Source of the DNA: a virus
Lineage: Duplodnaviria; Heunggongvirae; Uroviricota; Caudoviricetes
Length of the DNA stretch: 19,295 nucleotides
Direction: 5' to 3' (one strand)
Virus record (IMG/VR): IMGVR_UViG_2563366887_000005
Coordinates: 1 to 19,295 of that record
Positions 1,413-18,818 of this stretch are shown here, one piece after another. The translations under genes and the position numbers were made by a program. Position 1 is the first letter of the stretch. The number at the start of each line of letters is the position of its first letter. The notes under the pieces were generated by a model that was not told the origin of the DNA, searched no databases, and was given only the letters and a program-made list of their open reading frames with translations.

Positions 1413-1446
1413 TACAGCTGCATTTATTAAGGTTATCATCCGTTTC

Positions 1447-1533
1447 GCTGAAAAACATAACCCATAAAATGCTAGCTGTACCAGGAACCACCTCCTTAGC
1501 CTGTGTAATCTCCCTTACACGGGCTTATTTTTT
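1447..1533 (+). ncRNA. cyaR: CyaR (RyeE) Hfq-dependent small RNA
   Basis: Sequence GCTGAAAAACATAACCCATAAAATGCTAGCTGTACCAGGAACCACCTCCTTAGCCTGTGTAATCTCCCTTACACGGGCTTATTTTTT matches CyaR as I recall it; ends in a hairpin plus U-tract; located between yegQ and ogr as in K-12. Confidence 0.85.
1507..1533. repeat. attL core (27 bp, AATCTCCCTTACACGGGCTTATTTTTT), reverse complement of the P2 att core, overlapping the cyaR 3' end
   Basis: Exact 27-bp direct repeat of 18792-18818; flanks a prophage with ogr at one end and int at the other. Confidence 0.85.
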
Positions 1534-1597
1534 ACGCGTAATACAATGAAATAAAAGGATTTATTTCTGGTCACGTCCACACATTGACCACATCGAC

Positions 1598-1621
1598 AAA
1601 AAAGCCCCTCGACTGAGGGGC
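1598..1621 (-). terminator. Rho-independent terminator downstream of ogr
   Basis: Hairpin GCCCCTC-GACT-GAGGGGC with an A-run on the + strand (a U-run on the - strand) immediately 3' of the ogr stop. Confidence 0.6.
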
Positions 1622-1634
1622 TTCCTGTTTGTAA

Positions 1635-1853
1635 TTACATCCACATAATTTGCTGCCCTGACGGCAACGGGTGCGGTCTTACGGCGTGGACTTCTCCCGG
1701 CTTCACGATGTATCGCTGTACCGACTCATAAGTGATGAACGTGGCGCTGCAATTCACGTTCTGGCACTGGTGATAACGCTCTTTTGTCGTGTCAGTGATA
1801 TAGCGACTTGTACGCGCATGTGCGGCATGCTGGCATAAAGGACAATGAAACAT
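1635..1853 (-). CDS. ogr: Ogr, P2 late-gene transcriptional activator (zinc-finger), 72 aa
   Basis: Translation MFHCPLCQHAAHARTSRYITDTTKERYHQCQNVNCSATF... carries the Cys4 motif; start taken at the internal ATG (1853) because the 93-aa ORF extension is not part of Ogr. Confidence 0.9.
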   Translation of the reverse strand: MFHCPLCQHAAHARTSRYITDTTKERYHQCQNVNCSATFITYESVQRYIVKPGEVHAVRPHPLPSGQQIMWM

Positions 1854-1934
1854 CGCGAGCACCTCTTCCGGTTTTGTTGATGGTGCCATTTTAGTTAATT
1901 TATCCTTATAAAACAAACAGATAAAATAAAAACA

Positions 1935-3098
1935 TCATTCATCATCTTCTGTTTCGTACTCCACATCAGAAAGCCTGACCTCAAGCTCTAAGGACGTCGT
2001 GAAGCCGCTATTATTCAGAAAATGTGTCACCTTAGTGATGGTCCAGTCCTGCTCGTCTATGACGCGCTTAAAGCCTGACACTCTGACCGGTGTTTCCGTG
2101 TAAATATCTGCACGACCGGTAGCCAGGATGATGGAGAACTCCGCTACACCCCGTTGCAGCTTATCCCACTTCGCCTGAGCGGCACGCATGGCCTGCGCTT
2201 TCGTGGCATATACCGTAGTCAGGGCAAAAACGTTGTCAGCCTCACCGGCCATGTATTCACCTTCGCGCGCTTCCGGTACTTTTGGCGCTTTCTTCTGCGT
2301 GACCGGTTTCGCTTTCGGGTGCTCCAGTGCGCGCAGGTGTTTCTCTTTCTTTTTGCGTTTCAGTTTTACCTTCTGCTTTTGTGGCTTCGGGTCTTTGGTG
2401 TGTAACCACTTTGCCGTTACGCCGGTATAGGCTCCACGGTCAGCAATCGCAAAATGATGGCGGTCGCCGTCGCTGCGGGTGATGGTAATCTGCGGGATTT
2501 TTTTACCGCTGGCCGTCACCCCCTGCCCTGCTTTGAGAAACAGCAGTTCTCCCATTTTTACCGACACCTCGCCGCCGTTGCGTTCAGCAAGACGGGTCAG
2601 GAATTTCACATCAGACTCCTGCGACTGGTCGATGTGCGGGATTTTAATTCCGGCCAGTGACGGAGCGACACTGGCTTCCAGCCTGTTACGGGAGGCTATC
2701 GCCTCAACAATCGCACCGAGCGTGGTGTCATGCCAGGAGCCTTCCCGGCGGGAATTGAGCGTCCCACGAAAATCTGCACTCCGGGCACGGATGGTGACCA
2801 CATCCGGTGCGCCCCGGTGTTCAACCTCATCAACGGTAAATTTCCCTTTGCATACCAGGGCAAAACCTTTCCAGCCGATATACACCGTCAGGACAGCGCC
2901 ACGAACAGGCAGCCCGACCTGCCCGTCGGCATCGTTCAGTTCAATATCAAGCTGGTCAGCCTCAAAGCCCCGGTTATCCGTCAGGGTCATGCTCATCAAA
3001 CGGTCGCTGATATTGCCGGTAATATCCCTGCTGTCGAGCATCAGCATGTAATCCGGCGTCAGCGTACTGCCTGCATCAAATGTCAGCGCATCCAGCAT
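1935..3098 (-). CDS. D: P2 gpD-like tail protein, 387 aa
   Basis: Full-length ORF, MLDALTFDAGSTLTPDYMLMLDSRD...; position between ogr and U matches P2 gene order; start overlaps the U stop by 1 nt. Confidence 0.9.
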   Translation of the reverse strand: MLDALTFDAGSTLTPDYMLMLDSRDITGNISDRLMSMTLTDNRGFEADQLDIELNDADGQVGLPVRGAVLTVYIGWKGFALVCKGKFTVDEVEHRGAPDVVTIRARSADFRGTLNSRREGSWHDTTLGAIVEAIASRNRLEASVAPSLAGIKIPHIDQSQESDVKFLTRLAERNGGEVSVKMGELLFLKAGQGVTASGKKIPQITITRSDGDRHHFAIADRGAYTGVTAKWLHTKDPKPQKQKVKLKRKKKEKHLRALEHPKAKPVTQKKAPKVPEAREGEYMAGEADNVFALTTVYATKAQAMRAAQAKWDKLQRGVAEFSIILATGRADIYTETPVRVSGFKRVIDEQDWTITKVTHFLNNSGFTTSLELEVRLSDVEYETEDDE

Positions 3099-3577
3099 TA
3101 TCCCGCCCCCGTCATACCCGTGAATTTAGTCGCCATACTGCCAGCCTTACCGATGAGCGATTCTGCCTGTTTACCGATATCGCCATAAAGCGCGGCCAGT
3201 GATTCATCCACGCGGGTGAGCGACAGCGTAAAATCAATTTTCCGGGGTGTGCCGTCTGCAAAGAAAATACTCCCTGTTTCACTCACCCTGCTGATGACAT
3301 ACATGCCGTAAATCATGCCGGTGCCATCCAGCAACGGCCACGCCCGGCCTTCCTCTGCCATCAGCCTGAGCGTGGTCATCGTCAGCTTCCCGCCGGTCAG
3401 TTCGGGATAAAGCACGCCGGCAAGCGTCATGTTTTCCTCACCCACACCGAGAAACTGGTAGGCATCCCGTTTACCGATACGGGAATTTGACGGCCAGCGA
3501 TAATCTGATTCACGCTGCATGGTCTGGTGTGGCAGCGTCTGGCGCATAAAAACAAACATACCTAACGCGAGCATCAT
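3098..3577 (-). CDS. U: P2 gpU-like tail protein, 159 aa
   Basis: 159-aa ORF with a strong SD (GGAGG) upstream; order T-U-D as in P2. Confidence 0.9.
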   Translation of the reverse strand: MMLALGMFVFMRQTLPHQTMQRESDYRWPSNSRIGKRDAYQFLGVGEENMTLAGVLYPELTGGKLTMTTLRLMAEEGRAWPLLDGTGMIYGMYVISRVSETGSIFFADGTPRKIDFTLSLTRVDESLAALYGDIGKQAESLIGKAGSMATKFTGMTGAG

Positions 3578-3591
3578 TTTTCGTCACCTCC

Positions 3592-5991
3592 TTAACCGTC
3601 ATGCATCATGCTGGCACGGGCGCGCGCACGTTTATCCCGCTCGTATTTTTCGAGCGCATCCTGTAACTGGCGGTCAAGCTGTGTCCCCGGCGCAGTACCA
3701 CCCGTCAGGCTGATGTGATATTCGTTTTTACTCTGGTCCACATAAGAGCGGCCAGCCGGTGCCGTGACCGGCTGATAAACCTGATAGCCTGCATAAGAGC
3801 TGGTCGCCGGAATATAACCACCGCTGCCATACGTGGCGGCTTGAGTTCTGGCGGCGGTCTGGTCAAGTGTGTCTGACTCTTTGTTGATAACACCGAGTTT
3901 TTCCAGTACCCAGTCAATACCGCTGCGCAGTTTGTTGAACGCATTAAGCGGCAGCATCAACGCGTCAGCCAGTGCCTGCCCGAACATGACACCCGTGTCA
4001 CGGCAACGGTTCAGGGTGTCCTGGGTGGCTTTGACGGGGGCAATCAGGTTTTTAAACCACTGCCACGCGGCCTGTAACTTTTCACCCAGCCAGTCAAACA
4101 GCGGCTTAAGTGGCGTGAACAGTTCCCCCACCGGCGCAAATGCCGCTTTCAGCCCTTCCACCACACCGCCAAAGAATGCGCTGACAGGCTCCCAGTATTT
4201 ACGGATAAGCAACGCCCCGGCGACAATTGCAGCCACCACGGCCACAACCGGCCAGCTAATCGCCCCGATGGCCGTCATAACGGCACTACCAACCGTCGTG
4301 AAGATTGCCCCCATTGCGCCTGCTGCCGCGATGATGGCATTGATGCCAGTGATAACCGGCCAGGCTACAAGACCAATTGCACCGATGATGCCAGTAAGCG
4401 CCAGCGCGCCACCGGCAATGATGCCAATGGTTGACGCCAGTGATTTGTTTTTCTGGATCCAGCCGTCGAGTTTTAACACATACTTTGTGGCCGTCTGTGT
4501 GAGCTTACGCAGTGCGCCTTCCTGCTGGTCAAACAGGTCTGTCCCCACCGCCTCATAAGCGGACTGAAACTCCTTAAAGTCACCGCCGAGGTTGTCCTGC
4601 ATGATATTTACCAGCTCGGCAGTCTTCCCGTCTGAGGCTTTAAACGCAGCGGTCAGTTTGTCCAGCTTTCCGGTTGAGGCGGCAGTCATCAGCACGGCAG
4701 CGGCTGAGCTGGCCTCCTCCCCGAAAATAGTTTTCATGTATTCAGCCTGCTGGGCAGTACCGAGCCGGTTTTTCTCAAAACTGGCCTGCATTTCTTTCAG
4801 AATGGTAAATATTGGCCGGGTGTTTCCTTTGCTGTCTGAGGTTTTCACTCCAAGCTCTTTGAGTGCATCCCATGCTTTTCCCGTCGGTGCCTGCAGGCGG
4901 CTTAACACGGCACGGCTTCCCGTCCCCGCCATTGAGCCTGTGATTTTTGCATCATGCAGCGCCCCGACCATTGCGGCGGTTTCTTCAATGCTGACACCGG
5001 CATTTTTTGCCACAGGTGCGGCATAGGTCAGCGCATCGCTCATGCCGTCAAAATCGGCGGCGGTTTTGTTCATCGTCATGGAGAGGACATCCCCGATATG
5101 AGCGACCTTATCGTTTGAAAGCTGAAAGGCGGATTTCATCCCCATCAGCAGGGCGGCGTTTTCTTCCATTGTGCGACGGTTCGCCAGCGCCATATTCAGC
5201 GTGACCGGCGTTGCCGCCTGAATGGCATCAACATCCCCACCGGCTTTCGCAATAATAATCTGCGCACCGGCTGCATCATCTGCCGAGGCTGCGGTATTGT
5301 CGCCGAGCTGGCGCGCCTGCTTGCGTAGTGCAGCCATTTCGGCGGAGTCTTTTGCCACACCGAGCACAGCCTGCAATTCTGAGTTTTTCTGCGCAAACTC
5401 ATAACCGGGCATCAGCAGCTTAACTCCGGCCATCGTTCCCGCCGCCGCAATCCCCACACCGGCAGCGCCCACTGAGGCCATATTTCCGGCCAGTTCCTTT
5501 CCGGCCTGATAACGCTGTTTTACTGCGTTAAGTTTTGCCTGTTGTGCACTGACACGCGCCAGTGCGTCACGCTGACGGTTAAGCTGTGCGGTGGTTTCAC
5601 TGATACGGTTTTTCAGTCCCTGCTCATCATGTGCAAGATTGCGGGTATTAATTCCCACAGCGGCCAGTTCCCGCTGCTGGCGTTTAACGGAGTCCGTCAG
5701 GCGGTTATATTTCGCCTGTAAGTCCTCCGCCGCACGCTTTGCGGATTCGCGCAGTTCCTCAACCAGAATGACCAGATGCCGCATACTACGCCCCAGCCTG
5801 TCCAGCTTCCAGACTACCAGAGTGTCACCTGCTGATAATGTTCTGAGCAGTTTTTTCAGCCCCGGCCTGTCGGACTTCGTGCCGCTGATTTTGTCCTCAA
5901 AAATCAGCTCACATCCTGCGCACTCCAGCGCATTACGCTGCAATTCCGTGTTCTGGTCATTTGTTGACACGCGTACATAGCCAATAAGCAT
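3592..5991 (-). CDS. T: Chimeric ORF: tail tape-measure protein (gpT-like, N-terminus missing) fused in frame to the first ~82 codons of a serine DNA invertase gene
   Basis: C-terminal ~700 aa show tape-measure features (long Ala/Gln-rich helical region, Gly/Ala-rich hydrophobic stretch IGIIAGGALALTGIIGAIGLVAWPV...). N-terminal MLIGYVRVSTNDQNTELQRNALECAGCELIFEDK...TLVVWKLDRLGRSMRHLVILVEELRE is a Pin/Gin/Hin-type resolvase catalytic domain. Junction estimated near 5745. Confidence 0.75.
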   Translation of the reverse strand: MLIGYVRVSTNDQNTELQRNALECAGCELIFEDKISGTKSDRPGLKKLLRTLSAGDTLVVWKLDRLGRSMRHLVILVEELRESAKRAAEDLQAKYNRLTDSVKRQQRELAAVGINTRNLAHDEQGLKNRISETTAQLNRQRDALARVSAQQAKLNAVKQRYQAGKELAGNMASVGAAGVGIAAAGTMAGVKLLMPGYEFAQKNSELQAVLGVAKDSAEMAALRKQARQLGDNTAASADDAAGAQIIIAKAGGDVDAIQAATPVTLNMALANRRTMEENAALLMGMKSAFQLSNDKVAHIGDVLSMTMNKTAADFDGMSDALTYAAPVAKNAGVSIEETAAMVGALHDAKITGSMAGTGSRAVLSRLQAPTGKAWDALKELGVKTSDSKGNTRPIFTILKEMQASFEKNRLGTAQQAEYMKTIFGEEASSAAAVLMTAASTGKLDKLTAAFKASDGKTAELVNIMQDNLGGDFKEFQSAYEAVGTDLFDQQEGALRKLTQTATKYVLKLDGWIQKNKSLASTIGIIAGGALALTGIIGAIGLVAWPVITGINAIIAAAGAMGAIFTTVGSAVMTAIGAISWPVVAVVAAIVAGALLIRKYWEPVSAFFGGVVEGLKAAFAPVGELFTPLKPLFDWLGEKLQAAWQWFKNLIAPVKATQDTLNRCRDTGVMFGQALADALMLPLNAFNKLRSGIDWVLEKLGVINKESDTLDQTAARTQAATYGSGGYIPATSSYAGYQVYQPVTAPAGRSYVDQSKNEYHISLTGGTAPGTQLDRQLQDALEKYERDKRARARASMMHDG
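5746..5991 (-). pseudogene. Serine DNA invertase (Pin/Gin/Hin/Cin family) 5' fragment; C-terminal HTH DNA-binding domain deleted
   Basis: The catalytic-Ser motif YVRVST is present, but the ORF switches to tape-measure sequence after ...LVEELRE; no invertase C-terminal domain is found anywhere in the window. Confidence 0.75.
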
Positions 5992-6058
5992 GATCATCCC
6001 CCTGAATAAAAACCGGGGATGATGCCAGTTAGCCATTATCTCTGCATTTTCATAAACG

Positions 6059-6092
6059 TTGGTTTGGGAGAAGCGGCAAAACGGAATGTAGG
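6059..6092. repeat. Inverted repeat, left arm (34 bp crossover site of the invertible tail-fibre segment)
   Basis: TTGGTTTGGGAGAAGCGGCAAAACGGAATGTAGG is the exact reverse complement of 7606-7639; encodes the conserved [10 protein letters not shown] junction peptide in both orientations. Confidence 0.8.
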
Positions 6093-6426
6093 TAACGGGC
6101 AAAACCAAATTCCGGATATGGCGGCGTTTGCCAGTTCACTTTCATCAACGGGTTTTCAAAAACTTCCTTCAGGTCTGATTATTCAGTGGGGTATTGTCAG
6201 TGGAGCATCAAACTATACGGTGACTTACCCGGTAACATTCCCAAATCGTTCACTTGCGCTGTTGGCTGTGCCACATACAACGTCGGTGGCTGGTATATCT
6301 GCAATGGGCATAGCGAACTGTTCTGATATCAGCAAATCACAGTTCTATATAATTGTTGGCGGTATATCTCAGGGAAAAATTGTCAAATATGAAAGGTCCT
6401 GTTTTTGGGTAGCAATCGGTGTATAG
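6059..6426 (+). CDS. Alternative tail-fibre C-terminal (variable) domain in the silent orientation (Sv'); no promoter or constant region of its own
   Basis: Shares the [20 protein letters not shown] junction and KLPxGxIxQWG pattern with the opposing 7266-7760 ORF; the reading frame begins inside the inverted repeat. Confidence 0.6.
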
Positions 6427-6434
6427 GTATATCT

Positions 6435-6830
6435 ATGATTTATTTCTCAAAATCGACTAATGGTTTTTTCTTTGATGGTATAAACAGCGACATGCCTGCT
6501 GACATTGTTGAGATAAGTACAGACTTATACAATGAATTAATTGCCGGACAGCAGGAAGGGGGTAAATTAATCACGTCAGATGAAAATGGTTTACCGGTAC
6601 TGAAATCTCCGGCGATTGATTATGTCGCACGTGCTGAAAATCAGCGAATGCAGTTACTTGCTCATGCCGATAATGTCACAGCTGACTGGCGGGTGGAATT
6701 AATGCTTGGTGATATCAGCAGTACAGATAAAGAAAAACTATCTGCCTGGATGGACTACAAAAAAGAAGTAAAAGCCGTCGACACTTCGACGGCTCCTGAG
6801 ATTAGCTGGCCTGAGTTACCGGAGGTGTAG
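6435..6830 (+). CDS. Tail-fibre assembly chaperone (Tfa, gpG/U'-like)
   Basis: Translation MIYFSKSTNGFFFDGINSDMPADIVEISTDLYNEL... has the typical Tfa N-terminus; start taken at ATG 6435 rather than the upstream TTG. Confidence 0.75.
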   Translation: MIYFSKSTNGFFFDGINSDMPADIVEISTDLYNELIAGQQEGGKLITSDENGLPVLKSPAIDYVARAENQRMQLLAHADNVTADWRVELMLGDISSTDKEKLSAWMDYKKEVKAVDTSTAPEISWPELPEV

Positions 6831-7245
6831 GCCATTCAATATCTGGAGCACTGGAGGTATCCACCAGTTCCAGTGCGTCCAGGTAATCCAGCCACAAATT
6901 ATATTGCGCCAGTTCCTCACCTTTCAGACGACCAATAGCTGATTTGCCAGGCCATTGCTTACTGTTCATGTATTCGTTAGCCTGGTTAATTAGTAGCTGT
7001 TTTTCTGATTCAGTAATTTCAATAAGCTCTTCATACGTGGGTGGAGGAATATCTGCCCACGCAGGCAGCCCATCATCTCCGGCAATACGGATTTTTCCTT
7101 GTGGCGGTTCAGCCATAAACTCACTGATAATATTTTGATTTACTTCCTTTGCGTCTGATAAATCCCATCCCTCTGATTTATATTTATCAATCATATCCAC
7201 AGGGAAAAAAGCATTATGCCTTGCGCTATAAACATATTCGTTCAT
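6802..7245 (-). CDS. Tail-fibre assembly chaperone (Tfa, gpG/U-like), partner of the currently expressed fibre C-terminus
   Basis: Translation MNEYVYSARHNAFFPVDMIDKYKSEGWDL...; convergent with the other Tfa, 3' ends overlapping. Confidence 0.75.
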   Translation of the reverse strand: MNEYVYSARHNAFFPVDMIDKYKSEGWDLSDAKEVNQNIISEFMAEPPQGKIRIAGDDGLPAWADIPPPTYEELIEITESEKQLLINQANEYMNSKQWPGKSAIGRLKGEELAQYNLWLDYLDALELVDTSSAPDIEWPTPPVTQAS

Positions 7246-7265
7246 ATAAATCACCCTGAATAAAA

Positions 7266-7760
7266 TTACTCACCAACAGCCCACCAACTGTAATTCATCG
7301 ATACTGTGGAGCTGGTTGATGCAGTTCTGTAAGCGGAATTAAAACCGGTTAGTGTTGGACCTTCTGCAGTCATCACGAATCCCCGTCCAGCGCCTAAAGG
7401 CGCACCACCATCACCAGAATGGGTAAGCATGGCGCAGTCCACTTCTTTAGGAAAAGGGATGCTGAATGTAATTCTCATTGTTTGCGTCGATAATGTCGGC
7501 GTAATCGCACCACGACCATATTGCAGGATTTTCCCGTTGGGTAATTTCATCCATCCATCACCACTGGCAAAAGAGGTCATGTCCGGTATCTGATTTTCCC
7601 CTGTTCCTACATTCCGTTTTGCCGCTTCTCCCAAACCAAGGTATGCGAGAAGACCAGCTACATCCTTTCCACTCAAATTAGTCAGCGTATTGTCCAGCGG
7701 TTGTTTACCTGCCAGCGCATTAAGCATTGTCGTGGCAAAGTTCGGATCGAGGAGCTGCAA
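7266..7760 (-). pseudogene. Tail-fibre protein (gpH-like) 3' fragment: short constant-region remnant plus variable C-terminal domain (Sv); most of the gene deleted
   Basis: The ORF runs through the right inverted repeat ([21 protein letters not shown]) but has only about 40 codons upstream of it before meeting terminase P sequence on the opposite strand. Confidence 0.65.
7606..7639. repeat. Inverted repeat, right arm (34 bp crossover site)
   Basis: Exact reverse complement of 6059-6092. Confidence 0.8.
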
Positions 7761-8378
7761 CGCTGCATGGTCGACACGCTGGAAGAATGGGAAGACTATG
7801 CGCCGTTTGCCACCAATCCGTTCGGCTCACGTCCGGTATGGATTGGTTACGACCCGTCACACCGTGGCGACAGCGCCGGATGCGTGGTACTGGCACCGCC
7901 GGTGGTGGCCGGTGGCAAATTCAGGATCCTTGAGCGTCACCAGTGGAAAGGCATGGACTTTGCCACCCAGGCAGAATCCATCCGCAAACTCACCGAAAAA
8001 TATAACGTTGAATACATCGGTATTGATGCCACCGGCCTCGGTGTCGGTGTGTTCCAGCTCGTGCGCTCGTTCTATCCCGCCGCTCGCGATATCCGCTACA
8101 CGCCGGAAATGAAAACCGCAATGGTCCTCAAGGCAAAAGACGTCATCCGCCGTGGCTGTCTGGAATATGACGTCAGCGCCACCGACATCACCAGCTCGTT
8201 TATGGCTATCCGCAAGACCATGACCAGCAGCGGACGCAGCGCCACCTATGAGGCCAGCCGCAGCGAGGAAGCCAGCCACGCCGACCTCGCCTGGGCGACC
8301 ATGCACGCTCTGTTAAATGAGCCACTCACCGCCGGTATCAGCACCCCGCTGACATCCACCATTCTGGAGTTTTACTGA
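7701..8378 (+). pseudogene. P: Terminase large subunit (gpP-like) C-terminal fragment; 5' two-thirds deleted
   Basis: The ORF ends 1 nt into the portal gene start (TGATG overlap), matching the P-Q operon arrangement, but only about 225 codons remain where P2 P is about 590 aa. The 5' boundary is uncertain (junction somewhere in 7640-7760). Confidence 0.7.
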
Positions 8379-9412
8379 TGAGCAAGAAAAAAAGGAAAAC
8401 ACCGCAACCTGCGGCAAAAAAAATGACCGCCAGCGCCCCGAAAATGGAGGCATTCACCTTTGGTGAGCCGGTGCCGGTACTCGACCGCCGTGACATTCTG
8501 GATTACGTCGAATGCATCAGTAACGGCAGATGGTATGAGCCACCAATCAGCTTTACCGGTCTGGCAAAAAGCCTGCGTGCTGCCGTGCATCACAGCTCAC
8601 CGATTTACGTCAAACGCAATATTCTGGCTTCAACGTTTATCCCGCACCCGTGGCTGTCCCAGCAGGATTTCAGCCGCTTTGTGCTGGATTTTCTGGTGTT
8701 CGGTAATGCGTTTCTGGAAAAGCGTTACAGCACCACTGGTAAGGTCATCAGACTGGAAACCTCACCGGCAAAATATACCCGCCGTGGTGTGGAAGAGGAT
8801 GTTTACTGGTGGGTGCCGTCCTTCAACGAGCCGACAGCCTTCGCGCCCGGCTCCGTGTTTCACCTGCTGGAGCCGGATATTAATCAGGAGCTGTACGGCC
8901 TGCCGGAATATCTCAGCGCCCTTAATTCTGCCTGGCTGAATGAGTCGGCCACGCTGTTTCGCCGCAAGTATTACGAAAACGGCGCTCATGCCGGATACAT
9001 CATGTACGTCACCGATGCCGTGCAGGATCGCAACGATATCGAAATGCTTCGCGAAAACATGGTGAAGTCAAAAGGCCGCAATAACTTTAAAAATCTGTTT
9101 CTCTATGCCCCGCAGGGGAAAGCCGACGGCATTAAAATTATCCCCCTCAGTGAAGTGGCAACGAAAGACGATTTTTTTAATATCAAAAAAGCCAGCGCCG
9201 CTGACCTGCTGGACGCGCACCGCATCCCCTTTCAGTTGATGGGCGGCAAGCCGGAGAACGTCGGGTCGCTGGGTGATATTGAGAAAGTGGCAAAGGTCTT
9301 TGTCCGCAATGAGCTTATCCCGTTACAGGACAGGATCCGCGAGATAAACGGCTGGCTTGGTCAGGAGGTCATCCGCTTTAAAAACTACTCACTGGACACT
9401 GACAACGGTTGA
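8378..9412 (+). CDS. Q: Portal protein (gpQ-like), 344 aa
   Basis: Full-length 344-aa ORF immediately upstream of cos, as in P2; basic N-terminus MSKKKRKTPQPAAKK. Confidence 0.85.
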   Translation: MSKKKRKTPQPAAKKMTASAPKMEAFTFGEPVPVLDRRDILDYVECISNGRWYEPPISFTGLAKSLRAAVHHSSPIYVKRNILASTFIPHPWLSQQDFSRFVLDFLVFGNAFLEKRYSTTGKVIRLETSPAKYTRRGVEEDVYWWVPSFNEPTAFAPGSVFHLLEPDINQELYGLPEYLSALNSAWLNESATLFRRKYYENGAHAGYIMYVTDAVQDRNDIEMLRENMVKSKGRNNFKNLFLYAPQGKADGIKIIPLSEVATKDDFFNIKKASAADLLDAHRIPFQLMGGKPENVGSLGDIEKVAKVFVRNELIPLQDRIREINGWLGQEVIRFKNYSLDTDNG

Positions 9413-9417
9413 ACATC

Positions 9418-9439
9418 GCCGCCTGCGGGCGGCTTTTTT
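9418..9439 (+). terminator. Rho-independent terminator after Q
   Basis: GCCGCC-TGCG-GGCGGC hairpin followed by TTTTTT. Confidence 0.7.
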
Positions 9440-10903: not shown

Positions 10904-12012
10904 AAATTGGATTATATAGTGTAAATGATAAGGCAATGTTTGACGCATTGAATCAAACTAAAGTCACTCATGAAGATATGAAAAGTCTCTTTTTTAAAAG
11001 AGGAATGATTATATCCAAAGAGACTAAACGAAAAACATTGGCTTTGGATTTTTCCAGATACTATCATGGCTATTCTGATTTTGAATTTCTTTCAAACATA
11101 CTCGGTTCTGTTGGGCGGAGAGAAAAAGTATCAATTAACATTATTAATACAAATATAGATAAAAATAGTATGGAAAATACTATTAAATCTATTTGTGAAG
11201 ATCTTCAAAAAGAAGGCGATATAACTAATATAAATTACACCGAGAATGGTTTTGAAGTATCAATCAAATATGTGAAACTAGATTTCAAAATGAGCGAGTT
11301 TCGCCAATCCTCATCACGTGAAGCCAAAATACAAGTTGAAATGAATGAAAGCGGTGAATTTATCACCCGTTTCCCTCAAAATGCTAAAGCAAGGGAATTC
11401 AACGAGCGCCTCGTGGAGAAGATCAAAGAAGACAACAATGAGGATCCAGCCAGTCTTGATGAAATTTCGCTCGAAACTGTTAAATCACCAGCGGAAAGAA
11501 GCAAGTTTTTTGAGCAACTAATCTCAAGCATACCTAACTACAAATGCATTGACGTATCGGATGTATACGTTACGCATCCAATTCTTGAGTCAAATAAGTC
11601 TAACGAAAATGAAGATGATTCTGATGATGACGATACAATTATTGACACAGGATATCATATCTCCAAAGCTTCATTAAAAGGGCGCAGCGTTCTTGACTCT
11701 CTCGAGTTTAAAGAGTTGTTAGGAAAAGGATTTTATATTACCAAAATCATTTGGAGTTCTGTTGTTGACACTTATAAAGACTCGGACAAATATGAATTCG
11801 AGGCTCAATTTGTCGACCCAGATAATTGCAAGTTATTCTCGTATATCGTTCGCGGTGTTTATAAGTACAAAAATATAAACGAATATGCAAATCGTCAAAA
11901 TGTAGATAAAGAGAAGGAAAAACTGCTATTATTAGCACTTGAAAAAACCGCTCGCGAAATTTCAAACAGTATTATCGCCTCAAACACAATTGAGGTTGTT
12001 ACTGATAAATAA
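10900..12012 (+). CDS. Hypothetical protein, 370 aa; second gene of the hotspot cassette; contains an acidic DDSDDDD stretch
   Basis: ATG at 10900 overlaps the upstream TGA (translational coupling), with GGGAG 8 nt upstream; the ORF-track start at 10885 is a TTG and is less likely. Confidence 0.7.
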   Translation: MKIGLYSVNDKAMFDALNQTKVTHEDMKSLFFKRGMIISKETKRKTLALDFSRYYHGYSDFEFLSNILGSVGRREKVSINIINTNIDKNSMENTIKSICEDLQKEGDITNINYTENGFEVSIKYVKLDFKMSEFRQSSSREAKIQVEMNESGEFITRFPQNAKAREFNERLVEKIKEDNNEDPASLDEISLETVKSPAERSKFFEQLISSIPNYKCIDVSDVYVTHPILESNKSNENEDDSDDDDTIIDTGYHISKASLKGRSVLDSLEFKELLGKGFYITKIIWSSVVDTYKDSDKYEFEAQFVDPDNCKLFSYIVRGVYKYKNINEYANRQNVDKEKEKLLLLALEKTAREISNSIIASNTIEVVTDK

Positions 12013-12023
12013 AAGGAGTTGTT

Positions 12024-12695
12024 ATGAAAACAAAATGGTTTACTGCCAACTTCCCTGCTGGACTTGATAGTTTATATCAGTCTATCATTAACACTCCTTT
12101 TGATAGTGATAAAGGCTGGGGATTTAGTATCAACTCATATGAAGAAAATGCAATATCATCTCGATACATCGAGAAAGTAGAGGTCAACGAGATAATCGTT
12201 GATCCATATGGAAACGAGACTCAATATACACAGCTAAAATATATTCAATTTAACTTTTGGCTTTACACAACAAAAGGTAAAAACTTCATCTTAATCATTG
12301 AGTCGCCTCCCAGAAGCATTAAGAACTTCATATCAAACATAATTAAATCAACACATTCTGATTTTAATGTGTCAAATCTCAACATCAAAATTGAGGACTT
12401 CATTTATTTCCTGACCCCGCACTTTGAAAAAATACAAGTGCACAAGGCAAAATTAAAAGACTTAACGTTTAGCAAACACACATCCGGCATACTGGAACTT
12501 GAGTCATCAAGTGACGCACTTATGGAAATAAGAAACATTTTCAAAAATGCAAATTTTACAATTGATAAAGTTAAACTTAATGTTAAGGATGTGACCGGTT
12601 ATGAGTCATTAGAAATTAACACAAATGGGTCCATTTCACTTTCAGAGCAAATTTTTGACAAGGTGTATCTAACCATAGAAAGATTTGCCCTTTAA
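12024..12695 (+). CDS. Hypothetical protein, 223 aa; third gene of the hotspot cassette
   Basis: Strong SD (AAGGAG) 6 nt upstream of the ATG; 11-nt gap after gene 2; followed by a terminator. Confidence 0.7.
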   Translation: MKTKWFTANFPAGLDSLYQSIINTPFDSDKGWGFSINSYEENAISSRYIEKVEVNEIIVDPYGNETQYTQLKYIQFNFWLYTTKGKNFILIIESPPRSIKNFISNIIKSTHSDFNVSNLNIKIEDFIYFLTPHFEKIQVHKAKLKDLTFSKHTSGILELESSSDALMEIRNIFKNANFTIDKVKLNVKDVTGYESLEINTNGSISLSEQIFDKVYLTIERFAL

Positions 12696-12735
12696 GTTAA
12701 CAATACAATTCAATTCTTTTGATGTAATAAAAACG

Positions 12736-12766
12736 GCCTCATTAAAAATGAGGCTTATCGTTTTAT
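12736..12766 (+). terminator. Rho-independent terminator ending the hotspot operon
   Basis: GCCTCATT-AAA-AATGAGGC hairpin followed by a T-rich tract (TTATCGTTTTATT). Confidence 0.65.
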
Positions 12767-12860
12767 TATTGTAGCCATGCCATCTGGTTTTCACCTTTTC
12801 CTCCAGCACAGTATTAATACACACCTTATATAGTTTTATCTCTTAGATATTCACACTATT

Positions 12861-15140
12861 TCAATCTATTACAGTTGTGAACCCTGGCCATCCATCAGCG
12901 ACCGGATAAGCGAATTTTTTCCCGTCATAATTTACGGTCGCGCCACGCGCCAGCGCCTCAAGCTCCCATCGCTGTGGCCTGATACCGTTCTGAGCAAGGT
13001 CAACGCGGATACGGGTAATTTGCATTCGTTCCGACCGAGTCAGTCTGGCCGATGGCGCTATTTCATGCGGTTTTAACGGGCTTCCGTTTCTTTGCTGACG
13101 GTTTGGTCTTCTCAGACCGTGTTTTAATGCACCTCTGAGCGCCCTCACGACCTCCTGGTCATTCCATTCGATAACACCGTCATCTACCAGATTAAGCACT
13201 GCTACGGCGTGTTCAGAAGGCGTGGGAGCCGGTAACGAAGTATCACCACCGGTGAGCTTTCCACAGTTATTGACAGGACTCCGAGGCGCGGCGATGCCGC
13301 TTTTTAAAGTCAAAGGCTCAACGACCGGAACTTTCGGCACAATGCGCCAGTCCGTCGTTCTGGTGATATGAATATGACGCGCGCCGAGATGCGGCGCGTA
13401 AATGCCGACCACTCTCTCGACTTCTTCCTCGTACTCGTTAACGTCATCCGACGGGCTACGGGCGACCCTGACAGTCTGACAATCGCGCGGGACATTTGCC
13501 CCGCCCTGCGCGCTGATATACAACGCAAAATCACCACTGTCTGCGGCGGCGCGTGCAGCCTCGACGCGTTCGTCAAACTCATCAGCAATGCTGACGCCGC
13601 GAGGCAATTTGCGTAGCTCACGGTAAGCCCCCATTGTCGGCAGGCCAACCGTTTTAAATTGCGGAATGCGCCACGTTGACGCCCATGCGGTAACAGCCGC
13701 GGCAGTATCTTTCAGCGGCCTGCCAGTATCGTTATCGAGCTGACCATCCAGTGCATAGCCGTCGATGTTTTTTGAGATGTATTTCGCGATATATCCCGCA
13801 GCACCGCCCCGGTTAAGGTGTTTTGCCTGAAAACGGTTTCGCGCAGCGCCTCTTTCGTCACCATCCTCTTTGAGCGCATAGCGACGCATGATTTCGATAA
13901 TCTGGTTACGCTGGCGTGGATTACAAAAAAGCATCATATGCCAGTGCGGCGTTCCGTCGTGGTGTGGCTCGACGACACGCAAACCGTAGACCTGTAAATC
14001 ATTATCCTTGAATGCCGTGCGCATCAGGCTCCAGATATGGCAGAGATAACGCTGCGCATCCTTTGGATTAAATGCCTCATCATTCCAGCCGTGATTTAGC
14101 TGGACGGTTTTACTTTCGCCTTTTCCGACCTGACGTGTCGGGTGATACTTTGACGGCGCGGTCAGCGTGATAAACATCCCCACATCACCCTCTGCGGCGG
14201 CATAACGCTCAATTCCGGCGATGGTGTTCATCAGCTCCATCCGGCGAATTTCAGGATTAGAAATACTGCCCATCACCTTACTGATAAGGTCGATGCGCTC
14301 GCCGGTTTCCCTGTTTTCAAGGTCACACGATTTAAGAAATTCCAGATTTGCCTGGCGGCGTGCACGCACATCACGAATGGCATGTTTACTGGCATAAGGA
14401 GAACGGTCTTTATTGACCTCCCCGACAGCAATCAGTAACGCCTCATGCCAGCGCATACGCTGGCCTTTAAGCTGATGAGTCCACCACTCATCGTTAAACA
14501 GACGGGCAATGGCAGAATATGCCTGCCTCGTGGTTATCTGTCCTTTACGGTATTTTTTCCAGTAGAGCGGGGAAATATTGAAAGCACGTGCAGCGCCAGC
14601 AACATGACCATACAGGTGAGTCTGCGCCTCATCCGTAAACAGCGATTCTTTTTCGCCATGTGCATCAACCCATGCATCGCAGAGTTCCTCATACATCATG
14701 AAAAGCTGCGATGAGATACGGGCGGCAAACTTTTTCAGCTCCTTGTCATTCATCCCCGGCAGGCGCGCATAGTGGTCACGCTCTGCCAGAAACAGTAACG
14801 ACGCGTCGGTGTTCATTTCATGGCGCTGATTCACGCGCTCAATGCGCGGCCATAAACGACGCTGAAAAGTGGATGTGAGGAAATAAAACCCGTGCACCGG
14901 GCTTTTATTGCGCCGGATGTAGTCATAGCGTGAAGTAAACAGCGAGCGCAAAAAGTAAGGCAGGCGGTTAATCGTGGATAAAACACCTTGCACCTGACGC
15001 ATCTCGTCACGTGTAAGGGGTCTTTCGCGCCCGACAGCCTCGCGTGGCGCGTTCCATGCATAAGCACCGGTAAACGCCTTACCGGTGCCTGCGGCAAATG
15101 CTGACGGAGGGACAAAACGCCCGGAGGCTTTAACGGCCAT
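12861..15140 (-). CDS. A: P2 gpA-like replication initiation endonuclease (rolling-circle initiator)
   Basis: Translation MAVKASGRFVPPSAFAAGTGKAFTGAYAWNAPREAVGRERPLTRDEMRQVQGVL... matches P2 A along its length as I recall it; start taken at ATG 15140 rather than the upstream TTG. Confidence 0.9.
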   Translation of the reverse strand: MAVKASGRFVPPSAFAAGTGKAFTGAYAWNAPREAVGRERPLTRDEMRQVQGVLSTINRLPYFLRSLFTSRYDYIRRNKSPVHGFYFLTSTFQRRLWPRIERVNQRHEMNTDASLLFLAERDHYARLPGMNDKELKKFAARISSQLFMMYEELCDAWVDAHGEKESLFTDEAQTHLYGHVAGAARAFNISPLYWKKYRKGQITTRQAYSAIARLFNDEWWTHQLKGQRMRWHEALLIAVGEVNKDRSPYASKHAIRDVRARRQANLEFLKSCDLENRETGERIDLISKVMGSISNPEIRRMELMNTIAGIERYAAAEGDVGMFITLTAPSKYHPTRQVGKGESKTVQLNHGWNDEAFNPKDAQRYLCHIWSLMRTAFKDNDLQVYGLRVVEPHHDGTPHWHMMLFCNPRQRNQIIEIMRRYALKEDGDERGAARNRFQAKHLNRGGAAGYIAKYISKNIDGYALDGQLDNDTGRPLKDTAAAVTAWASTWRIPQFKTVGLPTMGAYRELRKLPRGVSIADEFDERVEAARAAADSGDFALYISAQGGANVPRDCQTVRVARSPSDDVNEYEEEVERVVGIYAPHLGARHIHITRTTDWRIVPKVPVVEPLTLKSGIAAPRSPVNNCGKLTGGDTSLPAPTPSEHAVAVLNLVDDGVIEWNDQEVVRALRGALKHGLRRPNRQQRNGSPLKPHEIAPSARLTRSERMQITRIRVDLAQNGIRPQRWELEALARGATVNYDGKKFAYPVADGWPGFTTVID

Positions 15141-15405
15141 ATGAGCCAAAAGCCTCTGAACAACGCTTGCTGAGTTGCTCAACCTGCGCGTTTAAATCAG
15201 CAAAAGACTTTGCGCTTCCGGTCAGAATATCGTGATGCATCAGGCCGGAAACGAGCTGGCTTAATTTCGGGTAATAACCAACCACCGCCAGCCATTCCTG
15301 ACCGGCGTTTTTACCGCTTTCCGCTCTCTTTTTCTCGTGGAGAATAAACTGAAAGCTGTCACTGGTAACGACATAACGTTCGCCAATTTCGATACGAATA
15401 CTCAT
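15130..15405 (-). CDS. P2 Orf83-like small protein
   Basis: 91-aa ORF translationally coupled to orf82 (ATGA overlap) and abutting A; position matches the P2 orf80-83 block. Confidence 0.65.
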   Translation of the reverse strand: MSIRIEIGERYVVTSDSFQFILHEKKRAESGKNAGQEWLAVVGYYPKLSQLVSGLMHHDILTGSAKSFADLNAQVEQLSKRCSEAFGSYGR

Positions 15406-15626
15406 GCCATTCTCCGGTAATGTTTGTTTTTTGCTTCAAAGACTGACTGACAGGAAACACAACGCGTGGCTGACGGATAAGCCGCACGACGGGCAGCAGG
15501 TATTGGCGCGTCACACTCTTCGCAAACCAGCGCAGAAACACCGCAATGCTTTACCCTTGCCGCGTTAATCTGGCGCTCCAGTAATTCAGCCTTTTGTTCC
15601 TGAATAAAATCTACGTTGTCCGGCAT
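15402..15626 (-). CDS. TraR/DksA-family C4 zinc-finger protein (P2 Orf82-like)
   Basis: Translation has CEECDAPIP...CVSCQ, two CxxC pairs; 74 aa. Confidence 0.75.
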   Translation of the reverse strand: MPDNVDFIQEQKAELLERQINAARVKHCGVSALVCEECDAPIPAARRAAYPSATRCVSCQSVFEAKNKHYRRMA

Positions 15627-15928
15627 TACCAGCTCCTTTTGTCGTTCAGCTTCTTAAATTCATCAGCGCAATAGCTGGCAATTTCTGTCGTTAATTTCGT
15701 CAGTTCATCCACGGAGGAGATTTGCTTGTGAAATACAGCGCGTTTAACAAGTAAATTGACCACATCAGACAGGAGATTTAATTCGTTCTGATAAATCGCG
15801 ATAACAGACTCAGTTATTTCGCGTTTTTCTTTATCAAGACCAAGTTGAATAAGAGACAAATCACCATTTTTCATAACGGCGATTTTTAAGGCGTTATTCA
15901 GTAATACAACTGAACGAGAACAGGACAT
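15626..15928 (-). CDS. P2 Orf81-like hypothetical protein
   Basis: ORF with ATG at 15928 overlapping the upstream stop; conserved position. Confidence 0.6.
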   Translation of the reverse strand: MSCSRSVVLLNNALKIAVMKNGDLSLIQLGLDKEKREITESVIAIYQNELNLLSDVVNLLVKRAVFHKQISSVDELTKLTTEIASYCADEFKKLNDKRSW

Positions 15929-16152
15929 CAAAGCACCTCCCCGCGAGACAATCCGATATTGTGAAATTTTTCCGACTCCTGACTGAGCAGCTCGACTATC
16001 TCCACGCGGGATAACTCCGCCTTTGTGATGTGGCGAATCATGGCGTCAAGATGAGAAGAAAAGCGCGTCGCTGCGTCGGCCTGTGCTTCGGTTCTGGCCT
16101 GTTGCAGCAGTAATGCGTATTTACCGCACTGATTTTCAGAAACTGTATGCAT
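15928..16152 (-). CDS. P2 Orf80-like hypothetical protein
   Basis: ATG at 16152 with a GGAG SD; the ORF-track start (TTG at 16185) is less likely. Confidence 0.6.
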
Positions 16153-16215
16153 GACTTTCTCCAGGCAAAAAGAAGCCCCGCACAATTAAGTGCGTTAAAA
16201 ACTCTGGTTAATTAC

Positions 16216-16716
16216 TTAATGCAGATATTGCTCTGGTTTTACCGACGTCAGAATTGTCGGTGCATACTCAAACAGACTGAATAATTCACGTAATGCACGG
16301 AATAAAGCATCACGCCAGTAACATGACTCTTCATTAATTCGCCAGTATGGCTGGTTGAATTCTTTTTCAGTCAATCCGGCATGCATAAATAAAGTACGGC
16401 GCTGACTGACAGTTAAAAAGCTAATATATGCATACTCACTTGCACCGACCTGACGGCGTTTTGAGAATGCACCACGCAATTCATCAATTGCACAAACCAG
16501 TCGTTCACGTTCGACGTCGTTCATTTCTTCAAAACGCATCGTTGCGTGACGCTGTTTTAACTGCGCATGAAAGCAAACCGTTAGCCGTTCGCGTTCCATC
16601 ATCTGATTATAATAATCGCATGTCTCCTGCCAGCGAGGGACGGCCAGATGCTTACCAATTATCCGGCGCATAGTTGCTGGCTGTTTTTCAACAAGATTGA
16701 GCGTCATCACTGTCAT
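16216..16716 (-). CDS. B: P2 gpB-like replication protein (helicase loader), 166 aa
   Basis: 166-aa ORF, MTVMTLNLVEKQPATMRRIIGKHLAVPRWQETCDYYNQ...; position between cox/orf78 and orf80. Confidence 0.85.
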   Translation of the reverse strand: MTVMTLNLVEKQPATMRRIIGKHLAVPRWQETCDYYNQMMERERLTVCFHAQLKQRHATMRFEEMNDVERERLVCAIDELRGAFSKRRQVGASEYAYISFLTVSQRRTLFMHAGLTEKEFNQPYWRINEESCYWRDALFRALRELFSLFEYAPTILTSVKPEQYLH

Positions 16717-16883
16717 TTCCAGAACCTCCGGCTTTTCAGAAAGGTCAGAGCCTTCTTTAACGGACTCTGTTTTTTGGTGCGGATAATGATTCCCTTACGC
16801 CCCTTACCGTGGGTAATGGTGAAGTCAATCGCCCTGGGGCTTTCGTTACGCAGTAACTGAGCAATACAACGAGGCTCATTCAT
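16713..16883 (-). CDS. P2 Orf78-like small protein
   Basis: Small ORF from ATG 16883, stop overlapping the B start; the ORF-track start at 16907 is GTG. Confidence 0.55.
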   Translation of the reverse strand: MNEPRCIAQLLRNESPRAIDFTITHGKGRKGIIIRTKKQSPLKKALTFLKSRRFWK

Positions 16884-16893
16884 ACGGTTCTCC

Positions 16894-17169
16894 TTAACGT
16901 GGTTCACCGAGACCTAACCACATCAACCAGCCGTCACGAATCTCTTTAGGGCGGCTTTCATAAGCCAGTTTTAGTCCGTTATTCCATGCCGGAAGGTATA
17001 CCCAATATTCACCTGCACGACCTGAAGCTGATTGTGGATCGGTCATATCAATTACAGGCAGCTTTCCTTTATCGATCATCCGACGAACCGCTCCTGTCGA
17101 TTTTCCTATTAGTTTTGCGAACTCCTGATAAGGAATCGCATCAGTCATGAGTGTTACTTGCTTGCTCAT
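16894..17169 (-). CDS. cox: Cox (excisionase / directionality factor and Pc repressor), 91 aa
   Basis: 91-aa ORF divergent from C, MSKQVTLMTDAIPYQEFAKLIGKSTGAVRRMIDKGKLPV... with an HTH. Confidence 0.85.
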   Translation of the reverse strand: MSKQVTLMTDAIPYQEFAKLIGKSTGAVRRMIDKGKLPVIDMTDPQSASGRAGEYWVYLPAWNNGLKLAYESRPKEIRDGWLMWLGLGEPR

Positions 17170-17283
17170 GTCGTCCTCCAGCCCTCATGAATTGCGTTTA
17201 ATGCCTTATAATGCCTTTTAGTGCCCACATCCAAGCACTAAACAATCTACATCTAAACTGAATACTATTGAGATCTAAACACC
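17170..17283. promoter_or_regulatory. Early control region: face-to-face Pe/Pc promoters and C operators between cox and C
   Basis: Divergent cox/C arrangement as in P2; individual promoter and operator elements not resolved. Confidence 0.5.
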
Positions 17284-17583
17284 ATGTCAAACACGATAAG
17301 CGAGAAGATAGTCTTAATGCGAAAATCTGAGTATTTGAGCAGACAACAACTTGCTGATTTAACAGGGGTTCCGTATGGCACGCTGAGTTACTATGAAAGT
17401 GGTCGTTCAACACCTCCAACAGATGTCATGATGAACATCCTGCAGACCCCACAATTCACCAAATACACTTTATGGTTCATGACCAATCAGATCGCTCCTG
17501 AGTCCGGGCAAATTGCGCCCGCTCTCGCACACTTTGGGCAAAACGAAACAACGTCGCCCCACTCCGGTCAAAAGACTGGTTAA
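17284..17583 (+). CDS. C: Immunity repressor C, 99 aa
   Basis: 99-aa ORF with an N-terminal HTH (LSRQQLADLTGVPYGTLSYYESGRSTP). Confidence 0.85.
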   Translation: MSNTISEKIVLMRKSEYLSRQQLADLTGVPYGTLSYYESGRSTPPTDVMMNILQTPQFTKYTLWFMTNQIAPESGQIAPALAHFGQNETTSPHSGQKTG

Positions 17584-17698
17584 CAATTCATCGTGAATAT
17601 ATTCATCACAAGTGCCTACTATTGGTGGCTAAATTTCAGCCACCACGAAAAAAGCGATTAGTAGTCGCAAAAAAACACACCACTCGGAGGGTTTTCTG

Positions 17699-18712
17699 AT
17701 GGCAATCAAAAAACTCGATGATGGTCGATATGAAGTGGACATCCGCCCTACTGGACGTAACGGAAAACGCATCCGTAGGAAGTTTGATAAGAAAAGCGAA
17801 GCTGTCGCTTTCGAGAAATACACGTTGTACAACCACCACAATAAAGAATGGCTATCAAAACCAACAGACAAGCGACGTCTGTCGGAGCTGACACAGATCT
17901 GGTGGGATTTAAAGGGTAAACACGAAGAGCATGGGAAATCTAATCTTGGAAAAATTGAAATCTTCACAAAAATAACGAATGACCCATGCGCATTTCAAAT
18001 TACGAAATCGCTTATCAGCCAGTACTGCGCCACCCGAAGAAGTCAGGGTATTAAACCTTCGAGTATCAATCGTGATTTAACATGTATTAGCGGCATGTTT
18101 ACAGCCCTGATTGAAGCGGAGTTATTCTTTGGTGAGCACCCTATCAGAGGGACAAAAAGGCTTAAGGAGGAAAAACCAGACACAGGCTATCTCACGCAGG
18201 AAGAAATTGCCTTACTGCTTGCTGCTCTTGACGGCGACAACAAAAAGATTGCGATTCTTTGCCTGAGTACTGGAGCACGTTGGGGAGAAGCAGCTCGTTT
18301 GAAAGCAGAAAATATCATCCATAACCGCGTCACGTTTGTTAAAACGAAAACAAACAAACCACGCACCGTCCCGATCTCAGAGGCTGTTGCCAAAATGATC
18401 GCGGATAACAAACGAGGTTTTTTATTCCCTGATGCTGATTACCCTCGCTTCAGACGAACAATGAAAGCAATAAAACCGGATTTGCCAATGGGGCAAGCCA
18501 CACATGCACTAAGGCACAGCTTTGCCACTCATTTCATGATTAATGGAGGAAGTATTATCACGCTACAACGGATACTAGGTCACACGCGGATTGAGCAAAC
18601 TATGGTTTACGCTCATTTTGCGCCAGAGTACCTTCAGGACGCCATTTCTCTTAATCCGCTAAGAGGTGGTACTGAGGCCGAGAGTGTCCACACAGTGTCC
18701 ACAGTAGAGTAA
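17699..18712 (+). CDS. int: Tyrosine integrase (P2 Int-like), 337 aa
   Basis: 337 aa; C-terminal HALRHSFATHF...GHTRIEQTMVYAHF (catalytic R-H-R-Y box); SD GGAGGG upstream; adjacent to attR. Confidence 0.9.
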   Translation: MAIKKLDDGRYEVDIRPTGRNGKRIRRKFDKKSEAVAFEKYTLYNHHNKEWLSKPTDKRRLSELTQIWWDLKGKHEEHGKSNLGKIEIFTKITNDPCAFQITKSLISQYCATRRSQGIKPSSINRDLTCISGMFTALIEAELFFGEHPIRGTKRLKEEKPDTGYLTQEEIALLLAALDGDNKKIAILCLSTGARWGEAARLKAENIIHNRVTFVKTKTNKPRTVPISEAVAKMIADNKRGFLFPDADYPRFRRTMKAIKPDLPMGQATHALRHSFATHFMINGGSIITLQRILGHTRIEQTMVYAHFAPEYLQDAISLNPLRGGTEAESVHTVSTVE

Positions 18713-18791
18713 CGTTTAAGGGCTTTCAGTGGTAATTTATGCCGCTCAAACCCGCATTGTACCGTTGAAAGCCCCTACTGGTGACACCCTA

Positions 18792-18818
18792 AATCTCCCT
18801 TACACGGGCTTATTTTTT
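18792..18818. repeat. attR core (27 bp), direct repeat of 1507-1533
   Basis: Identical 27-mer AATCTCCCTTACACGGGCTTATTTTTT. Confidence 0.85.

Follow-up and report, generated by a model that had tools for sequence, protein, structure and literature searches.

A probably decaying P2-type prophage that has kept cos, its replication and integration genes and a predicted three-gene anti-phage cassette

A class of defective P2-like elements in which defence genes are conserved has been described (NAR 2026, PMC13586616). The hotspot between Q and A of P2, beside cos, and a three-gene anti-phage system were reported by Rousset 2022, with protection against P1 (PMC9122126). Sp13 of E. coli O157 Sakai, a P2-like prophage devoid of head-formation and packaging genes (Asadulghani 2009), was packed inefficiently by the particles of other prophages (PMC2669165), which is an experimental precedent for helper packaging. 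Here we analysed a stretch of 19,295 nucleotides, called the window below (positions 1 to 19,295 of the IMG/VR virus record IMGVR_UViG_2563366887_000005), which contains a P2-type prophage at positions 1507-18818. The initial annotation had considered this element as a possible helper-dependent, satellite-like carrier of its cargo. Our analysis indicates that it is most probably (probability about 0.8) a decaying P2-type (Peduovirus) prophage, which has undergone two illegitimate deletions and retained its defence cargo. Both the concept and the class are already published, and the element is one more defective P2 prophage with a known defence cassette in the known Q-A hotspot.

The P2 genome (NC_001895) was used as the reference for a segment map made with BLASTN, and the intactness of genes was assessed by tblastn with the P2 proteins. 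The prophage is bounded by two identical 27-nt attachment (att) cores, at 1507-1533 and 18792-18818, which both correspond to P2 24356-24382 (BLASTN and repeat search). Positions 1507-5748 correspond to P2 24382-20141 (97.1% identity), with att, ogr, D, U and T minus its first 97 codons. Positions 7747-9600 correspond to P2 1852-1 (96.6%) and positions 9582-9629 to P2 33593-33546; the segment 7749-9629 (P2 1850-1 plus 33593-33546) holds the last 209 codons of the terminase gene P, the whole portal gene Q and cos. Positions 12862-18818 correspond to P2 30312-24356 (97.7%), with A, orf83-80, B, orf78, cox, C, int and att. Overall, the nucleotide identity with P2 was 96.6-97.7% across 12.05 kb, in the P2 gene order. 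The two segments that do not derive from P2 are 5749-7748 and 9630-12861, the latter with 34% guanine plus cytosine (GC).

The element shares with P2 the att core, cos, the replication origin (ori), C, cox, int and ogr. It is integrated between duplicated P2 att cores and carries int, C, cox, B and A with its internal ori in the P2 order, as expected for a Peduovirus. The full late gene set and the late promoter regions were not found, P2 1853-20140 having no counterpart in the window by BLASTN. Because the late gene set is incomplete and the late promoter regions are absent, we regard the element as a defective member of this group. About 16 kb are lost in comparison with P2, comprising amino acids 1-381 of P, the genes O, N, M, L and X, the lysis genes, R, S, V, W, J, I, most of H, FI, FII, E and amino acids 1-97 of T. 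Every complete P2 gene that is retained is stop-free, full length and 96-100% identical to P2 at the amino acid level (tblastn). The retained genes and sites are the following:

1635-1853, minus strand: ogr, late-gene activator of 72 amino acids, 100% amino acid identity to P2 Ogr; Pfam Ogr_Delta, 2e-21
1935-3098, minus strand: tail gene D, intact, 97.9% amino acid identity over 387/387; Pfam Phage_GPD
3098-3577, minus strand: tail gene U, intact, 98.1% amino acid identity over 159/159; Pfam Phage_P2_GpU
7749-8378, plus strand: P', 3' fragment of the large terminase gene, amino acids 382-590 (BLASTN and tblastn); PF17289 Terminase_6C on the called product of 203 amino acids
8378-9412, plus strand: Q, portal protein, intact, 98.8% amino acid identity over 343/344; Pfam Phage_portal
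9553-9629, minus strand: cos region, with the 19-nt cohesive-end sequence at 9582-9600 and the flanks conserved in P2 and P4
12861-15140, minus strand: A, replication initiator and nickase, intact, 97.2% amino acid identity over 759/761; Pfam Phage_GPA, 2e-124
15133-16883, minus strand: orf83, orf82, orf81, orf80, B (16216-16716) and orf78, intact, full length, 96-99% amino acid identity
16894-17169, minus strand: cox, 100% amino acid identity; Pfam Phage_Cox, 5.5e-48
17170-17294: Pe and Pc promoters with the C operators O1 and O2, 122/125 identical to P2
17284-17583, plus strand: C, immunity repressor, 100% amino acid identity to P2 C
17699-18712, plus strand: int, 99.7% amino acid identity over 337/337; Pfam Int_N and Phage_integrase

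The cohesive-end 19-mer at 9582-9600 is GGCGAGGCGGGGAAAGCAC. Alignment with circularised P2 and P4 showed that the block common to these two genomes is complete on both sides of cos, and that the P2 homology past cos ends at 9629, the exact end point of the P2/P4 homology. When a 101-nt query from the cos region was used, one match covering at least 80% of it was found in 26 phage records. Since the sequence agrees with that of phage records in which this flank is present, we infer that this cos would be recognised by the P2 terminase. The initial annotation had called cos intact, while naming a defective flank as a way in which its proposal could fail; we found no such defect. It was equally right about the presence of A and B with the origin inside A, and of int, cox and C. 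The origin region, at 13222-13341, is 119/120 identical to P2, with the nick near 13282; B shares 98.2% of its amino acids with P2 (tblastn), and the B terminator is identical at 62/62 positions. In the control region, O1, O2 and the -35 and -10 hexamers of Pe are identical to P2. A T-to-C change at about 17260, between the Pe -10 hexamer and O2 and thus outside the operators and hexamers, is private to this element, being unseen in P2, phage 9W and three other prophages.

The late functions are in a different state. The ogr gene keeps its own promoter region (1854-1934), and promoter and gene together show 98.2% nucleotide identity with P2. The three P2 late promoter regions (pP/pO, pV and pF) gave no match in the window, so that Ogr has no target left in cis. 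This corrects the initial annotation, which had pointed to Ogr as the activator of late promoters. The absence of the pP/pO region also cuts Q off from its late promoter pP, and P' has neither a promoter nor the N-terminal ATPase. The statement that the element has no capsid genes also had to be qualified: N, O, L and M have been lost, whereas Q, which encodes the portal, is still intact; also left are the fragment of P (amino acids 382-590), D, U and amino acids 98-815 of T.

The first non-P2 segment contains the remains of a tail-fibre switch and is joined to P2 sequence by two junctions, with the following features:

3592-5991, minus strand: in-frame fusion of a DNA invertase (amino acids 1 to about 84) with the tape measure protein T (amino acids 98-815), 799 amino acids; Pfam Resolvase and PhageMin_Tail in a single open reading frame
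6047-7651: frozen invertible tail-fibre segment, with mirrored pairs of Pfam Gp53-like_C and Caudo_TAP
6019-6426, plus strand, and 7266-7748, minus strand: fibre C-terminal cassettes; Pfam Gp53-like_C
6405-6830, plus strand, and 6802-7254, minus strand: fibre assembly chaperones; Pfam Caudo_TAP

Junction 1, at 5748/5749, joins codon 84 or so of the invertase in frame to codon 98 of T, with a microhomology of at most 1 nt. In the resulting reading frame, the Resolvase match ends at amino acid 122, equivalent to about amino acid 84 of the invertase, and is followed by T sequence that is 98.6% identical to P2 T. Junction 2, at 7748/7749, has the constant part of H on one side and codon 382 of P on the other. 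At both junctions the partners are unrelated sequences and the microhomology does not exceed 2 nt, which argues for illegitimate deletions rather than repeat-mediated assembly errors. We also considered that the invertase promoter could drive constitutive transcription of T', U, D and ogr, and dropped this idea when a consensus scan upstream of the fusion yielded no sigma-70-like promoter.

Positions 5749-7748 are 93.7-95.5% identical to the invertase and invertible-fibre region of phage Cartapus, where this region is flanked by H and FI and has the same orientation; the corresponding region of pro483 is also similar. The element thus differs from P2 in having a Cartapus/pro483-like invertase and fibre switch instead of Z/fun. 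Inverted repeats of 89 nt (6047-6135 and 7563-7651, 81% identity) surround the alternative fibre and chaperone cassettes, as in an invertible switch. A full-length serine invertase, with a catalytic domain and a C-terminal helix-turn-helix, is not present in the fusion, in which the invertase is truncated and continued by T; without its DNA-binding end, the fibre switch is frozen unless an invertase acts in trans. At the outer ends of the inverted repeat are two 26-bp sequences, TTCTCCCAAACCAACGTTTATGAAAA at 6047-6072 (minus strand) and TTCTCCCAAACCAAGGTATGCGAGAA at 7626-7651 (plus strand). They look like crossover sites of Hin/Gin/Cin/Pin-type invertases.

These observations suggest the following history. 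The ancestor would have been a P2-type phage in which an invertase-controlled tail-fibre switch replaced Z/fun. A deletion of about 12 kb, extending between the constant part of H and codon 381 of P (junction 2), would have removed the baseplate, tail completion and lysis genes, L, M, N and O, as well as pP/pO and pV. Another one of about 3 kb, extending between codon 84 or so of the invertase and codon 97 of T (junction 1), would have taken away FI, FII, E/E' and pF. Head, packaging, lysis, baseplate, sheath and tube functions are all lost as a result, and the element can no longer make heads, tails or terminase, or lyse the cell.

The second non-P2 segment carries the cargo:

9839-12695, plus strand: three-gene cargo, Hp1 (9839-10903), Hp2 (10900-12012) and Hp3 (12024-12695), 34% GC

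This cargo stands between Q/cos and A, in place of the orf91/tin/old genes found in P2. The three adjacent, co-oriented genes each fitted their own PADLOC model with near full-length matches (Hp1, 2.2e-63; Hp2, 3.7e-37; Hp3, 5.1e-08). We take the system to be the one named Rst_3HP in DefenseFinder. A Pfam scan of the three proteins (E≤0.001) gave no match, and no NCBIfam model scored above its curated cut-off. For Hp1, a precomputed Pfam table lists PF26115 PDDEXK_GAPS4, which the Pfam scan at E≤0.001 did not return, and the RefSeq annotation reads PD-(D/E)XK nuclease; this annotation hints at a possible nuclease effector for the three-gene system. The arrangement is the same as in the system of Rousset 2022, with the same co-oriented genes between Q/cos and A; the host prophage is defective here rather than complete, and the activity of this copy is predicted. 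The same cassette was found at the same place, with 98.5-99.6% identity, in 9 complete E. coli genomes and on different P2 backbones. In one of these genomes, CFSAN061763, the P2-like prophage that holds it is nearly full-length and occupies the same chromosomal site. The tape-measure gene of that prophage (32115-34668) is split by an IS21-family element, ISEc12, which is a second, independent inactivation of a phage of this type.

The distribution of the two junctions was determined with a query covering positions 5450-8050 of the window, run against 5,426 complete E. coli genomes, and with junction 30-mers, searched in IMG/VR viral contigs, JGI metagenomes and GTDB representative genomes. 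Neither junction was spanned in any of the 5,426 genomes, and the 30-mers were absent from the three other collections. An exact-sequence look-up of the fusion protein returned a single contig, KB733185.1 of GCA_000352945.1, which is the source assembly. A recurrent reduced architecture spread across hosts, by which a satellite would be recognised, was not found, the junctions being present in one assembly only. In the same 5,426 genomes, Q-cos was present in 1528 and O-N-M in 1533, so that there was no excess of carriers of Q-cos over carriers of O-N-M.

Independently truncated P2 prophages occupy the same locus in other closed genomes, namely PE15 (17 kb), FT130 (12.8 kb) and H5 (13.7 kb). 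Each of them keeps ogr, a fragment of P with Q, cos, a different hotspot cargo and the region from A to int. As in these prophages and in the elements of the published class (PMC13586616), the locus and the retained blocks are the same, and the head and lysis genes are lost; the breakpoints and the cargo differ, and the present element has two deletions, the invertase::T fusion and junctions found in one assembly. PE15 (7323) and H5 (3022) share a P-side breakpoint that is identical to the base (P2 1501/1502), followed by ACACACCGGAAATG. The partners joined at this breakpoint are different (FII at 19067 in PE15, against 18756 in H5), and so is the hotspot cargo. This common breakpoint suggests either a deletion mechanism with a fixed end or an exchange of cargo inside a defective lineage. 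We considered whether the retention of Q and cos in the window, PE15, FT130 and H5 could reflect selection, and rejected this. The shared pattern is unusable as evidence for selection because the loci were picked for their likeness to the window: they had been ranked by similarity to it, at most three are independent, the pattern would arise by chance with a probability of about 0.2, and there is no excess of genomes with cos only.

The chromosomal site and the attachment region comprise the following features:

1-1362: yegQ/trhP; Pfam Peptidase_U32
1445-1530, plus strand: host small RNA gene CyaR/RyeE; Rfam RF00112, 100.7 bits, E 1.9e-19
1507-1533: att core, yegQ-side copy (attR in the P2 prophage map), 27 nt, identical direct repeat of 18792-18818
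1534-1600, minus strand: attP P arm with the Int arm sites, and integration host factor (IHF) site; match of 90 nt, 94.4% identical to P2 24293-24382
18678-18818, minus strand: attL side, with the Cox boxes, the P' arm and the att core (18792-18818), 141/141 identical to P2 24356-24496
18978-19295: yegR, reaching the end of the window; compared with the loci of PE15, FT130 and H5

The prophage lies between yegQ/cyaR and yegR. The 3' end of cyaR overlaps the att core, which identifies this gene as the integration target; the prophage is inserted in that end and supplies a replacement for it. In the P arm, the stretch with the Int arm sites is the same as in P2. The 5 differences are confined to the spacer between the IHF site and the core, and all but one of them also occur in phage 9W. 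Just beyond the int-side att core, at 18832-18871, 35-40 nt are 75-83% identical to the P2 P arm (P2 24293-24327; window 1562-1601). An earlier integration of P2 at the same site may have left this stretch behind.

We then have to weigh the reading of a decaying prophage against other explanations. One of these, in line with the initial annotation, is that the element behaves as a proto-hitcher: after derepression it would excise with its own Int and Cox, replicate with its own A and ori, be packed through cos mainly as a 34.6-kb dimer in the normal T=7 heads of a co-resident or heteroimmune P2-like helper, and so spread the cassette. We consider this unlikely, in spite of the intactness of cos, ori, A, B, int, cox, the att arms and the operators. 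The size would be suitable. The excised circle, computed from the att cores, is 17,285 bp, in keeping with the 17.3 kb proposed before, and its dimer of 34,570 bp would indeed approximate the length of P2 (1.029 times); this is inside the demonstrated capacity of P2 heads, three P4 genomes (34,872 bp, 1.038 times P2) having been packed in P2-size capsids with low efficiency (PMC6893505). P2 terminase works on circular DNA (PMC5557969), and Sp13, despite its lack of head and packaging genes, was excised, amplified and DNase-protected (PMC2669165). Defective prophages have already been proposed as proto-hitchers, in a review that itself names immunity and exclusion as the bottleneck (PMC11389934). 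This bottleneck would apply here. As the repressor is 100% identical to P2 C, homoimmune (P2-immune) helpers are excluded, and heteroimmune ones have no known means to derepress the element. The A protein of P2 acts in cis. Since P2 is, moreover, not SOS-inducible (PMC2669165), replication would require that the element itself be derepressed. The restriction of the junctions to one assembly, and the lack of an excess of Q-cos carriers over O-N-M carriers, also speak against this view. Rolling-circle replication of P2 gives monomer circles, so that dimers need recombination. The monomer amounts to 51% of the length of P2, when efficient P2/P4 packaging needs a genome-sized substrate (PMC9942202). 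Furthermore, marked Sp13 was not among the four prophages for which marker transfer was observed (PMC2669165).

The comparison with P4 led to a similar assessment. The P2 cos core and an activator of the Ogr/Delta type are common to both elements, which are also both devoid of head and tail genes, the portal gene of the present element excepted. The latter lacks the alpha primase, sid, psu, epsilon, the cI RNA region, vis and a P4-type integrase. It is larger (17.3 kb, against 11.6 kb for P4), has the rolling-circle replication of P2 A/ori and the immunity of P2 C. When all 13 P4 proteins were compared with the window by tblastn, the only match was that of Delta with Ogr (E 4e-10). We therefore rejected membership of a P4-like or other satellite family, P4 proteins matching only Ogr and the cargo proteins offering no satellite clue in Pfam or NCBIfam. 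There are no homologues of sid, psu, epsilon or alpha, and there is no size redirection. Sp13 differs in having a P4 epsilon-like gene, which may explain its induction by mitomycin C, while no epsilon homologue is found here. The resemblance to P4 suggested by the initial annotation thus holds for the listed cis sites and genes, which are intact, but not beyond: hijacking genes of the P4 type are lacking, only one assembly has the junctions, and C is that of P2. Satellite-like behaviour is mechanistically conceivable, and nothing in the sequence data indicates it. We regard detectable helper-dependent transfer of the element as a unit as quite unlikely. It is also rather improbable that it works as a P2-derived hitcher in which C is removed (by P4 epsilon, or by spontaneous derepression with a co-resident helper), followed by excision, A/ori replication, head-full packaging of a dimer in a P2-like helper and movement of the cassette between strains.

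At the other extreme, the locus could be fully inert, with only the defence cassette and perhaps C being expressed or functional, and the other genes intact merely because the event is recent. The single-assembly architecture does suggest a recent event; Q, P', D, U and T' have lost their late promoters, and the consensus scan detected no promoter upstream of the invertase fusion. We find this very improbable, because Pe/Pc, the operators, the att arms and ori have remained unchanged, nothing points positively to an inactivated early or integration module, and the precedent of Sp13 shows that such remnants can excise and replicate. That two P2-like prophages were merged into a chimeric locus in a short-read draft has a practically negligible probability. 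The source is a draft scaffold and the locus mixes P2-type and Cartapus-type segments, but the junction partners share at most 2 nt and no repeat, the window contains no N, one junction is in frame, the flanks and att cores are consistent, and similar, real truncations occur in closed genomes (PE15, FT130 and H5). We rejected a misjoin because the junctions lie between non-homologous sequences.

The reading of a decaying prophage has itself to face the fact that none of the 16 retained P2 genes contains a stop or a frameshift and that every cis site is intact. This weighs against decay: it fits a recent deletion, and would also fit selection for mobility functions. The retention of ogr, int and att is uninformative in this regard, because they are at the ends of the prophage and are kept by any internal deletion. 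A small P2 remnant in K-12 likewise keeps ogr, and the cryptic ogr genes of K-12 and B are functional.

If the element is a decaying prophage, the host plausibly still gets P2 immunity, from a C identical to that of P2, and the three-gene anti-phage system. As the early operon, A/ori, int/cox and the two att sites all seem to be functional, the element may excise and replicate once derepressed. Helper-dependent packaging through the intact cos is conceivable as a rare event. Judging from the sequence, the cargo would more likely spread by homologous recombination into a superinfecting P2-like phage than by helper packaging, because it is flanked by about 1.9 kb and about 6 kb of P2 DNA with 97% identity. 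Chimeras are formed between O157 prophages (PMC2669165).

The element is an example of immunity that came with a phage and is kept by the bacterium when the phage itself has decayed. Rescue of the cassette by recombination with an incoming P2-like phage bears on the question of whether defective elements still swap defence genes with active phages. If transfer by a helper were true, the element would represent a natural first step from a defective prophage to a satellite, a satellite born from the lineage of its own helper, and it would show whether a remnant that carries cos and is competent for replication can pass the immunity and size bottlenecks.

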